A stretch of 64,000 nt of DNA from Candidatus Eiseniibacteriota bacterium (GTDB taxonomy: Bacteria; Eisenbacteria; RBG-16-71-46; CAZAMP01), in NCBI GenBank assembly GCA_965224245.1, contig OZ245046.1, positions 3,616,001 to 3,680,000 on the forward strand, in the 5' to 3' direction. A program made the translations under genes and the position numbers. The notes under the pieces were generated by a model. It saw nothing but the letters and a program-made list of their open reading frames with translations, was not told the origin of the DNA and did not search any database. Positions 5,049 to 10,831 of the stretch are shown piece by piece (the first letter of the stretch is position 1; every line of letters starts with the position of its first letter).

Positions 5049-6410
5049 CTACACGACGCCCTGATCGAGCATCGCGTCGGCCACCTTCAGGAAGCCGGCG
5101 ATGTTGGCGCCGTTCACGTAGTTGCCGGGCGTGCCGAAACGGTCGGCCGTCTCCAGGCAGTTCTGGTGGATGTTCTTCATGATGCGATGCAGGTGCCCGT
5201 CCACCTCCTCGCGGGTCCACGACATCCGCATGCTGTTCTGCGACATCTCCAGGCCCGACGTGGCCACGCCGCCCGCGTTGGCGGCCTTCCCCGGTCCGTA
5301 CAGGATCTTCTTCTCGAGGAAGCACTCGATCGCCTCGGGCGTCGAGGGCATGTTGGAGCCCTCGCTGACGCAGAAGATGCCGTTGGAGACGAGGTTCTTC
5401 GCGTCCCGGCCGTTGATCTCGTTCTGCGTGGCTGCCGGGAGCGCGACGTCCGCCTTCACCGTCCACAGCGGGTTGTGGTCGGCGTTGGGATCGATGGCGG
5501 TGTAGGTGACGCCGGGGAACTTCTCGGCATACTCCTTGATGCGCCCGCGCTCGATGTTCTTCAGGCGCATGACGTACGCGAGCTTCTCGCTGCCGATGCC
5601 CTCGGGATCGTAGATGAAGCCCGACGAGTCGGAGAGCGTGACCACACGTCCCCCGAGCTGGATGACCTTCTCGGTCGCGTACTGCGCCACGTTGCCCGAG
5701 CCCGACACGAGGCACGTGAGGCCGTCGAAGCTCTTGCCCTTGGTGTGGAGCATCTCCTGCGCGAAGTACACCTGGCCGTAGCCGGTGGCCTCGGGTCGGA
5801 TCAGGCTGCCGCCCCAGTTGAGCCCCTTGCCGGTCAGCACGCCGGTGAACTCGTTCGCGAGCCGCTTGTACTGGCCGAACAGGTAGCCGATCTCGCGGCC
5901 GCCCACGCCGATGTCCCCGGCGGGAACGTCCGTGTTCGGGCCGATGTGCCGGAAGAGCTCGGTCATGAAGGACTGGCAGAACGACATGACCTCGTTGTCG
6001 GAACGGCCCTTCGGATCGAAGTCCGAGCCGCCCTTGCCGCCGCCCATCGGGAGCGTGGTCAAGCTGTTCTTGAAGACCTGCTCGAACGCGAGGAACTTCA
6101 GGATGCCCAGGTACACGCTGGGATGGAAGCGGAGCCCGCCCTTGTACGGTCCGATGGCGCTGTTCATCTCGATCCGGAAGCCGCGGCTGACGTGGGCGCG
6201 GCCGTGATCGTCGCGCCACGGGACGCGGAACATGATCACCCGCTCGGGCTCCACGATGCGGTCGAGGATGTTCGCGTGGAGGTACTCGGGGTGCTCCTCG
6301 ACGACGGGAACCAGGGACTCGACCACCTCGTGCACGGCCTGATGAAACTCCCGCTCGCCGGGGTTCTTGGCGGCCACCTGCTCCATGAACTCGTTGACGT
6401 CGAAGGCCAT
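5049..6410 (-). CDS. gdhA: NADP-specific glutamate dehydrogenase
   Basis: [69 protein letters not shown]. Confidence 0.97.
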
Positions 6411-6650
6411 GACTCAGATCTCCCTGATCGCCGGTTGACTGGAGGCCGGCGGAAACGATGCCCAGACCCGCGCATCCGGCGGCCGTGAGGCCTCCCGGCC
6501 CGGCGGGCGGACGATCCGGCGGATTGCCGGGGTTAGTCGAAAAGACCTGGGAGTTTACACCTGGCTGCGGGTCGTTGAACACCCATCGTATGTAGGGACT
6601 ATCCGAAGGCAGACGGGCGCCCCCGGCATGCGGGGATCGGCGGGGGTCTG

Positions 6651-6758
6651 GCACCGAGGCCGGATCCCGCACCGAGACCGGGTCCAGCACCGAGGCCGGG
6701 TCCAGCACCGAGGCCGGGTCCAGCACCGAGGCCGGGTCCAGCACCGAGGCCGGGCCCG
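6651..6758. repeat. Intergenic tandem repeat, 6 x 18 bp (GCACCGAGGCCGGGTCCA)
   Basis: Three exact central copies plus three variant copies, read directly. Confidence 0.92.
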
Positions 6759-9315: not shown

Positions 9316-9574
9316 GGGCGCCCCCTGCCCCGGCGGGTGTTGCGAAACGACCGCGAAGAGAATACCACAGGGCGTTCCGGATTCGATCTCACTGCCCGCG
9401 GAGGTCCTGGTGTCCCGACCCGGAAGTCGTGCTACCTTCTCGCCGACGCTCGCGGCTCCCGGCCGCGCTGCGACTCCTCGACGGATCTTCGGATACGCCT
9501 GCGTCGCCCCGTCGTGCCGGGAGCCACGATCACTCGGCGAGAAGGCGACATGACCTCCGGATCGGAACACTAGG

Positions 9575-10831
9575 ATGAACTCGATCGACTACACGCTGGG
9601 CGACACGACCGCACTGTTCGAAGACGCCGCCGACCGGCTCGGGCTCGAGCCCGCCGCGCGCCAGCTGCTCGCGGCGCCCGAGCGGGAGATCCTCTGTCAC
9701 ATCTCCATTCGCATGGATGACGGGAGCCACCGGATCTTCGGGGCGCATCGCGTGCGGCACAACTCCGCGTACGGCCCCACACTCGGGGGCATACGCTGGC
9801 ACCCGGCCGCGAGCCTCACGGCCTCGCGTGACGGTGCCGCGTGGAACACCTGGCAGGCCGCCCTCCTGGACATTCCACACGGCGGCTCGGCCGGCGCCGT
9901 CGACTGCAACCCGAAGGAGCTCTCCACGGTCGAGAAGGAGCGCCTGGCCCGGCGGTTCGTCAGCGTGTTCCGCGACGTCATCGGCCCCGGGCACGACGTG
10001 CTTCTGGCCGACACGTACGTCACCCCCCAGATCCTCGGCTGGATGACCGCCGCCTACGAGCTCTTCGCAAAGGTCGCCACGTCGGGCAGCACGGTCGGCA
10101 AGCCGGCCGCCCTCGGGGGCACGCTGCCCGAGTCGGAGAGCATCGCGCGGGGGGGTGTGGCGGCCGTGGTCGCCGCTCTGGAGGAGGCCGACCTCGATCC
10201 GGCCACCGCCACCTACGGCGTCGTCGGGTTCGGACCGGTCGGGCGAGCGGCCGCGCGGTACCACATGGAGCGAGTCGGCGGCCGGTTCGTGACGGCCAGC
10301 GACTCACGAGGCGGCGTCCGGGCCACCGGCACCGGCGGGTTCGAACCCGATTCGCTCGTCCGGCACAAGGTCCAGACCGGACGCGTGGTCGACCTGGACG
10401 GCGCCGAGAACGTCTCGAACGCCGACGTGCTCGCCGCGGAGGTGGACGTGCTCTACATCGCCTGTCCCGCGCAGCCCATCACCGCGGAGGTGGCCGCCTC
10501 GGTCGGCGGCAAGATCCTGTGCGAGCTCTCCGATGCCCCCACGACCAAGGAAGCGGATCCGATCCTGCTGGACAAGGGCGTCGTCGCGATCCCCGATCTC
10601 CTGGCCGGCGGCGGGCGACTCCTGATCGCCCACCTGGAGACCGTCCAGAATGCACAGAACGACCGCTGGCCCCTCGAGGACGTCCACCACCGGCTCGACG
10701 CCGGCATCCACGCGGCCTTCTCGGCGATCCACGAGATGGCGCACGCCGAGGGCTGCTCACTGCGCACGGCGGCCTGGATGTGCGGGATCGAACGGGTGGC
10801 CGAGGCCTGCCGCGCCCGAGGGTGGTGCTGA
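9575..10831 (+). CDS. Glu/Leu/Phe/Val dehydrogenase family protein, probably catalytically inactive
   Basis: Full-length GDH fold (HRVRHN, GGIRWHP, GKP, SDSRGG, IPDLLA, RTAAW...RGW) but the conserved Lys positions are substituted. Confidence 0.85.
   Translation: MNSIDYTLGDTTALFEDAADRLGLEPAARQLLAAPEREILCHISIRMDDGSHRIFGAHRVRHNSAYGPTLGGIRWHPAASLTASRDGAAWNTWQAALLDIPHGGSAGAVDCNPKELSTVEKERLARRFVSVFRDVIGPGHDVLLADTYVTPQILGWMTAAYELFAKVATSGSTVGKPAALGGTLPESESIARGGVAAVVAALEEADLDPATATYGVVGFGPVGRAAARYHMERVGGRFVTASDSRGGVRATGTGGFEPDSLVRHKVQTGRVVDLDGAENVSNADVLAAEVDVLYIACPAQPITAEVAASVGGKILCELSDAPTTKEADPILLDKGVVAIPDLLAGGGRLLIAHLETVQNAQNDRWPLEDVHHRLDAGIHAAFSAIHEMAHAEGCSLRTAAWMCGIERVAEACRARGWC

Follow-up and report, generated by a model that had tools for sequence, protein, structure and literature searches.

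We examined a locus for glutamate dehydrogenase (GDH) in a 64,000-nucleotide stretch of the genome of Candidatus Eiseniibacteriota bacterium (contig OZ245046.1, positions 3,616,001 to 3,680,000 of the forward strand). This whole stretch is called the window, and its G+C content is ~68%. An earlier note on this DNA had described four elements there: an intact NADP-specific GDH gene (gdhA), a gene for a PPDK_N-type protein, a gene for a GDH homologue lacking its active-site lysines, and argR-argG. All four were found where the note had placed them. The PPDK_N-type protein is here called W and the GDH homologue the dead GDH. The features of the locus are as follows, in positions of the window.

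5049-6410, minus strand: gdhA, a class-I NADP-specific GDH of 453 amino acids (aa), assigned with Pfam and NCBIfam
6411-6876: spacer of 466 bp between the genes for W and gdhA
6877-9315, minus strand: W (P0004), an 812-aa PPDK_N-type ATP-grasp protein, assigned with Pfam PPDK_N
6880-7488, minus strand: end domain of W, aa 610-812, delimited with the alignment and the AlphaFold model
7489-8610, minus strand: ATP-grasp nucleotide-binding domain of W, aa ~236-609, delimited with structure matches
8611-9228, minus strand: N-terminal helical domain of W, aa 30-235, delimited with the secondary structure and the predicted local distance difference test score (pLDDT) of the model
9316-9574: divergent intergenic region of 259 bp between W (start TTG 9315) and the dead GDH (start ATG 9575)
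9575-10831, plus strand: dead class-II GDH homologue (P0002), 418 aa, assigned with its ELFV domains and an alignment to 1bvu
10922-11368, plus strand: argR, assigned with Pfam and NCBIfam
~11449-12648, plus strand: argG, assigned with Pfam and NCBIfam

W lies upstream of gdhA, as the earlier note had it, and on the same strand; it carries a clear PPDK_N domain (E 9.8e-52), the only Pfam domain in the protein. The longest open reading frame (ORF) for W spans 6877-9570 and would leave 4 bp between W and the dead GDH, compared with 259 bp for the recorded 812-aa form that begins at TTG 9315. Tandem copies of an 18-nt unit, GCACCGAGGCCGGGTCCA, occupy 6651-6754 in the spacer between W and gdhA (5.8 copies, 95% matches). 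A consensus scan of 4700-11500, whose consensus may not suit this phylum, returned one promoter-like site, upstream of argR; it gave no promoter-like site in either the W/gdhA or the W/dead-GDH spacer, and no terminator-like or sigma-70-like site in the former.

The class-I enzyme appears complete. Its matches to ELFV_dehydrog (E 5.2e-89) and ELFV_dehydrog_N (E 2.5e-49) in Pfam were accompanied by a score of 762.3 bits on NF006929 (NADP-specific GDH), above the cut-off of 536, and its motifs GPYKGG, VFKNS, and GGGKGG are unbroken, with all three pocket lysines present (triad KKK), which bears out its earlier description as an intact NADP-GDH. The gdhA orthologue in G043, the sole other sampled genome of the family, is 78% identical and occupies the same position in its locus. 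The window's gdhA and the dead GDH belong to different classes (I and II, respectively) and share 30% identity over 376 columns. A third, intact GDH of 477 aa (triad KKK) is encoded ~2 Mb away in the same genome (G000:C1:5671202-5672635; L002:934-2367); it has a ~50-residue insertion at the antenna site of mammalian-type GDHs, and no PPDK_N gene was detected near it.

The dead GDH retains the family's two domains (PF00208, E 7.5e-38; PF02812, E 3.7e-36), and its closest solved structure is the Thermococcus GDH 1bvu (E 2e-87, residues 15-417). The roles of the three pocket lysines of GDHs, those of GPxKGG and WK and the catalytic lysine of GGxKGG, are known from work on the Clostridium symbiosum enzyme. 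Alignment to 1bvu confirmed the loss of active-site lysines claimed before and showed that all three are replaced: K70L, K94Q, and K106A, with L70, Q94, and A106 also read against 1euz. Thus the protein reads GPTLGG for GPTKGG, TWQAA for TWKTA, and GGSAGA for GGGKGG. The dinucleotide motif GxGxxG is kept as GFGPVG. Judging from its sequence, the dead GDH is probably without catalytic activity.

To place these losses, we aligned 141 GDH rows (120 listed matches, 19 GDHs from loci of the phylum, gdhA, and the query), of which 131 have the triad K-K-K. The nearest relatives of the dead GDH are 416-aa GDHs with 43–50% identity from Planctomycetota, Phycisphaerae, Acidobacteria, Calditrichaeota, and others. 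In a quick IQ-TREE phylogeny, five proteins, namely the window's copy (triad LQA), its orthologue in G043 (IQS), P0124 (IQC), P0126 (LQC), and P0150 (IQA), formed a monophyletic clade with long branches, nested in the active 416-aa GDHs (Shimodaira-Hasegawa-like approximate likelihood ratio test (SH-aLRT) support 100). Members of this dead clade are 42–49% identical to one another, compared with a mean of 76.6% for the active relatives. Since the five lineages share the lysine losses at such low identity, the losses predate their split.

The changes in the dead clade are unevenly distributed. We compared the clade with 115 active relatives at the 189 columns that are >=97% conserved in the latter. 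All five dead-clade members retain 66 of these columns, among them GxGxxG, GKPxxxGG, and the C-terminal helix, and four or five members have lost 48. The losses concentrate at the lysines, in the PAPDV stretch, at R186, and in two pocket segments, ANG (columns 319-321) and NAGGVTVSYFEQ (columns 345-356), both of which are missing from four or more members. G218, F219, G220, and G223 are kept throughout, and residues specific to the clade have become fixed: Q94, R224, W401, and I405 in 5/5 members, and D320, R348, and H353 in 4/5 each. All reading frames of the clade are open, and the G+C content at third codon positions (GC3) of the dead GDH is 0.912, similar to that of adjacent genes.

Compared with its G043 orthologue, the dead GDH has 0.52 nonsynonymous (dN) and 1.10 synonymous (dS) substitutions per site and a dN/dS of ~0.47 (NG86); the corresponding rough ratios are 0.31 for W and 0.27 for gdhA, and all three serve for ranking only, because dS of ~1.1 is near saturation and GC3 is ~0.9. 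As a rough indication, these values suggest that constraint on the dead GDH is relaxed yet still present. The results support the view that it is a maintained pseudoenzyme and not a relic. Two dead-clade members and two close W orthologues (65–67% identity) also come from contigs that agree in recorded length and source, at 7593 bp (lgn) for P0124 and P0008 and at 6448 bp (jgi) for P0150 and P0006, which suggests the same dead-GDH/W linkage in uncultured relatives.

W is a member of a large protein family: 7718 of 8000 scored candidates were homologues, and the best 120 were 49–68% identical, 735–851 aa long, and had PF01326 as their only Pfam domain. NCBIfam models of phosphoenolpyruvate (PEP) synthase matched only ~150 residues of W, at no more than 70.8 bits against cut-offs of 500–1350. 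Pfam gave no match in W to the PEP/pyruvate TIM barrel (PF02896), and the model finishes instead with an end domain of ~200 aa; nor did Pfam find the phosphohistidine domain PF00391 in W or an NTP_transf_2 domain in P0003 or P0004. A canonical three-domain PPDK, PF02896 included, is encoded separately in the genome.

The AlphaFold model of W (pLDDT 85.4; predicted template modelling score 0.82) has three parts. The N-terminal helical domain contains a disordered acidic insert (aa 79-113) and gave no interpretable match in a structure search of the whole model, which yielded clear matches only for the ATP-grasp domain. The nearest match of this domain was rifampin phosphotransferase 5hv1 (Z 25.4, root-mean-square deviation 2.9, 297 aligned residues), followed by HpeI 9goj (Z 18.3) and PPDK 1vbg (Z 11.9); Foldseek matched it to 5hv3 (E 8.9e-15). 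In a 52-sequence alignment the RSSSLLED and QCRP motifs of the ATP-grasp domain are invariant, and W carries every invariant residue of that alignment; the protein looks active. A complex prediction for W 236-812 with the dead GDH, made with alignments for this one domain pair and no controls, scored 0.01 against a mark of 0.32.

The end domain of W carries the motifs GPGRWGSxD and SFGTHFFQDL. It is common to all four paralogue types of PPDK_N-type protein found near GDH genes (see below), and GxGRWGSxD and SxGxHFF are invariant in 42 such domains; the invariant residues include G75, G77, R78, W79, G80, S81, D83, S116, G118, H120, F121, and F122 in the numbering of the A2 alignment. Modelled alone, the domain reached a pLDDT of 91.9, and its best structural match was weak (Z 5.4). 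The top 14 matches included the PPDK phosphoryl carrier 2fm4 (Z 5.1), the C-terminal domain of pyruvate kinase 2e28 (Z 4.9), PPDK 1vbg 376-511 (Z 4.7), the swivel domain of rifampin phosphotransferase (RPH 756-867; Z 4.6), and, at Z 4.5, enzyme I 2wqd. In the model, the invariant histidine, H729 in P0004 numbering, stands at the N-terminus of a helix, a position that the phospho-histidine of swivel or phospho-carrier domains also takes. The end domain is possibly a very divergent phospho-carrier/swivel domain.

To examine how far GDH and PPDK_N-type genes are linked, we used a sample of 201 genomes of the phylum, including the unpublished genome G015. GDH-like genes were present in 197 of these genomes, gdhA-type genes in 110, and W homologues (E <= 1e-50) in 61. 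We fetched 60 loci around the W-homologue matches and typed their genes by tblastn. The four paralogue types of PPDK_N-type protein were as follows.

W type: ~800 aa
M type: ~620 aa
N type: ~1060 aa, ending in an NTP_transf_2 domain at the C-terminus (E 4.4e-07 and 1.3e-08)
T3 type: ~1015 aa

The commonest layout was an operon in which a class-II GDH gene (G2) is followed by M and N. A class-II GDH gene lay within 4.5 kb of 50 of the 53 N-type genes in the phylum loci, and the remaining three stand where their contigs break off. Scanning metagenomes with the W alignment yielded 79 further loci, in which 37/56 N-type genes had a class-II GDH within 4.5 kb, 17 had no room for one, and two had room but no GDH. 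The corresponding numbers for the 26 W-type genes were seven, nine, and ten. The gdhA gene, present in 11/60 phylum loci, directly adjoined T3 in seven of them and in 3/79 metagenome loci. Class-II GDH beside N and gdhA beside T3 thus tie two GDH classes to the PPDK_N-type family, with a linkage that is near-obligate for N and frequent but optional for W. A contig scan with P0004 added one locus, in a Planctomycetales metagenome-assembled genome (L008), with a GDH gene directly upstream of the match.

Within this wider pattern, the window is unusual. Its layout, the dead GDH and W divergent and then gdhA, was repeated only in G043, and a PF01326 search of the window's genome found no PPDK_N gene besides those for W and the canonical PPDK, and no M, N, or T3 paralogue. 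In another genome (G011), the W gene is divergent from an intact G2-M-N operon. The earlier note had proposed co-occurrence of its three genes across genomes as a check; linkage of GDH to PPDK_N-type genes did extend far beyond chance, over many families of the phylum and into metagenomes, and the exact triplet did not, being confined to 2/201 genomes.

Several other arrangements were seen at these loci. A further GDH-like gene, highly divergent, lies directly upstream of a normal G2-M-N operon (L155:717-1940); its product is 40% identical to G2, has the triad KKK, and sits on a branch of length 1.43. A calcineurin-like metallophosphoesterase gene adjoins an N-type gene convergently in G018 (L057:5385-6311). 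Three metagenome W-type genes with no GDH nearby lie directly downstream of dnaN (L165:756-3074, L169:3971-5803, L171:3911-6223), and no recurrent partner besides dnaN (three loci) was found in the 17 GDH-less W-type metagenome loci, with 51 of 81 candidate ORFs scanned.

Loss of pocket lysines was not confined to the dead clade. Module GDHs in seven loci have altered triads (KKN in L056, L057, and L122; MKF in L121; WKM in L138; KEN in L153; KKS in L118), as do two rows of the 416-aa family (P0168, KKT; P0240, TKT). In the tree, L056, L057, L121, and L122 fall into a single clade (SH-aLRT 97), and L138 and L153 stand apart. With the clade of the window included, this placement implies at least four independent origins of lysine loss. 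The triad was readable in 89 loci with a class-II GDH, after omission of loci lacking a class-II GDH or gapped at the triad. Nine of these have a dead or partly dead copy, and seven of the nine also have an intact GDH (gdhA in six, a second G2 in one), compared with a second GDH in 10 of the 80 loci whose module GDHs are all intact, a contrast that is descriptive because related loci are not independent. Both exceptions among the dead-copy loci are short upstream: L118 begins inside the gene, and in L121 the gene is preceded by no more than 282 bases of contig. The pattern fits either a pseudo-GDH that functions together with a live GDH or plain redundancy.

We favour, tentatively and with somewhat less than even confidence, the reading that the locus is a reduced version, particular to this lineage, of a widespread and so far uncharacterised control module for GDH, with W as the ATP-using component, the dead GDH as a non-catalytic sensor or adaptor, and gdhA as the catalytic component. 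The ancestral class-II GDH partner of W would have become a maintained pseudoenzyme, its pocket remodelled and its fold and dinucleotide motif kept, and catalysis would have been left to the adjoining class-I NADP-GDH. W would use ATP, probably via a phospho-intermediate on the end-domain histidine, and would thereby place GDH activity under post-translational control. In this scheme, the dead GDH would serve as a ligand-sensing or adaptor component of this control and not as an enzyme. We infer that W uses ATP and transfers phosphate, which proteins bind each other, and which way the control runs; the grounds for control by ATP-dependent phosphotransfer are the fold of W and two precedents, VadK and Thermus GdhA.

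A broader proposal, possible but more doubtful, is that GDH, like glutamine synthetase, has a dedicated and as yet undescribed post-translational control system of dikinase-derived ATP-grasp enzymes, with a nucleotidyltransferase in many genomes, and that the module GDH repeatedly becomes a non-catalytic sensor or adaptor where a second, catalytic GDH exists. The window would then be the most extreme case, with no pocket lysine left and the ligand pocket remodelled, in which W acts via the dead GDH on a GDH of the other class.

Several observations weigh against a control module at this locus. That W binds, phosphorylates, or regulates a GDH is something we infer. The matches of the end domain to swivel domains, at Z 4.5–5.1, are in the stated noise range of the tool, and a Pfam search of the 42 end domains at E <= 10 returned no PEP-utilizers or other meaningful family, only two chance rows. 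The exact three-gene layout occurs in 2/201 sampled genomes, the window's own and G043. Among the metagenome W-type genes that could be assessed, 10/17 have no adjoining GDH, and the neighbours of such genes are heterogeneous (e.g., dnaN in three loci). The dead clade evolves 2–3 times faster than its active relatives. The 7/9 versus 10/80 comparison counts related loci, and two of the dead-copy loci are limited by their flanks. Finally, in two loci of family f16 (L058 in G096:C4 and L092 in G182:C5), G2, M, and N lie in pieces beside an intact gdhA-T3 pair. These pieces suggest frameshifts, and the two loci show that outright decay does occur; they also suggest that the two GDH modules can substitute for each other.

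The strongest competing explanation, which we regard as unlikely, is that class-I gdhA made the class-II GDH dispensable, so that the dead copy is a functionless remnant in slow decay and W acts independently. The long branches and fast divergence of the dead clade are in line with this, as are the higher dN/dS of the dead GDH than of its neighbours (0.47 versus 0.27–0.31) and the true fragmentation of G2, M, and N in L058 and L092, and lysine loss near an intact GDH (7/9 versus 10/80) is exactly what redundancy predicts. However, the losses are older than the split of five lineages that are now 42–49% identical, and none of these lineages shows a disrupted frame. All five have retained 66 of the 189 invariant columns and share the new invariant residues Q94, R224, W401, and I405. 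The window's copy also keeps a frame-specific GC3 of 0.912, and a 418-codon frame would be open by chance at 68% GC with p ~1e-4, by our own base-composition estimate. These points argue against decay.

It is less probable still that the remodelled pocket serves a different reaction with NAD(P), for which W might supply a phosphorylated substrate; the two proteins would then form a two-step metabolic pathway without a regulatory role. Rifampin phosphotransferase and HpeI, which the ATP-grasp domain of W resembles in structure, act on small molecules. The Rossmann GxGxxG motif and D243 are kept in 5/5 members of the dead clade, and the former pocket has conserved residues of its own (Q94 and R224 in 5/5; D320, R348, and H353 in 4/5 each). 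Yet there is no evident replacement for the general base, and other lineages place N, F, M, S, T, A, or C at the catalytic position, which looks like loss rather than convergence on a new chemistry. Most module GDHs are moreover fully canonical, with KKK in 131/141 aligned rows and in 43/50.

Improbable to a slightly greater degree is a heterohexamer of the Thermus type, in which the dead GDH would be an allosteric subunit with gdhA, and W would be incidental or act only upstream. Thermus thermophilus is known to have a GDH subunit without catalytic function (PMC9570180); in both the window and G043 the dead copy lies two genes from gdhA, and dead module GDHs elsewhere adjoin intact GDHs. Such an assembly is doubtful here because gdhA is of class I and the dead copy of class II, with 30% identity, whereas the Thermus pair is of one class and both 3aoe chains score alike against P0002. 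Furthermore, the ancestral and far wider partner of the dead-GDH lineage is the PPDK_N-type protein and not gdhA. That the three genes are neighbours by chance and functionally unrelated is very improbable, since the rarity of the exact triplet (2/201 genomes), the frequent location of W-type genes elsewhere, and the 466-bp spacer suggestive of a separate gdhA promoter are set against GDH/PPDK_N-type linkage in ~90 independent loci, with two GDH classes and four paralogue types, whose spread over families and phyla argues against a single mobile-island artefact.

The arginine genes do not appear to belong to the control module that we propose. They had been noted as part of the neighbourhood, but as linked neighbours they did not hold up: argR is without a match in the G043 locus, where other genes flank the dead GDH, and argR-argG are probably incidental, neighbours and not a part of the module. 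Farther out in the window, the proteins encoded at 3465-4598 and 13698-15662, both on the minus strand, have T9SS-type C-terminal sorting or FlgD_ig domains, and the latter has an additional weak match to LANC_like.

GDH is a point where carbon and nitrogen metabolism meet. To our knowledge, regulation of bacterial GDHs has been described in a few scattered systems only, among them Thermus GdhA/APRTh and mycobacterial GarA. The module described here occurs in many bacterial phyla and links both GDH classes to a large part of the dikinase superfamily, a branch of thousands of members that is still unstudied; its repeated generation of GDH pseudoenzymes would point to an overlooked general layer of control. 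The present analysis adds a three-gene variant with W alone, a module GDH in which none of the three lysines is left, and the second-GDH contrast. A literature search, with most subscription journals outside its coverage, returned no description of a GDH/PPDK_N module or of such GDH pseudoenzymes. As a minimal version, in which a single ATP-grasp protein is accompanied by a dead and a live GDH, the locus would be convenient for in vitro reconstitution.

Among known systems, the closest precedent on the GDH side is that of Thermus, which the earlier note had invoked correctly. Thermus GdhA is described as a catalytically inactive regulatory subunit, with activation by leucine (PMC9570180). Like the GdhA/GdhB hetero-hexamer (3AOE), the window has a GDH paralogue, here predicted to be inactive from its residues, that is kept near a catalytic GDH. 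Unlike in the same-class Thermus pair, the intact neighbour in the window is of class I and the dead copy of class II, and the conserved partner is an ATP-grasp protein, which the Thermus GDH system is without.

On the side of W, the nearest parallel in concept is VadK (Rv1127c) of M. tuberculosis. VadK is described as a PPDK-derived histidine kinase that autophosphorylates, binds metabolic enzymes, and tunes flux, acting on the methylcitrate cycle (PMC13400623). By this description, W resembles VadK as a PPDK relative outside the carbon-metabolism role and a proposed regulator; it differs in that our reading concerns GDH, and in that W has no phosphohistidine domain in Pfam and finishes with a domain that is unannotated. 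The ATP-grasp domain of W is clearly homologous to those of PEP synthase, PPDK, and rifampin phosphotransferase (5hv1, Z 25.4; 1vbg, Z 11.9), but W is without the PEP-utilizers_C TIM barrel and PF00391 of the PEP-utilising dikinases. The likeness to GlnE/GlnD is one of concept only, namely a nitrogen-assimilation enzyme under a dedicated covalent-modification enzyme, with modification of GDH being a proposal here. The N-type paralogue of the wider module does share a nucleotidyltransferase domain with GlnE/GlnD, in its C-terminal NTP_transf_2, whereas W has no such domain and the window's genome has neither an N-type nor an M-type paralogue.

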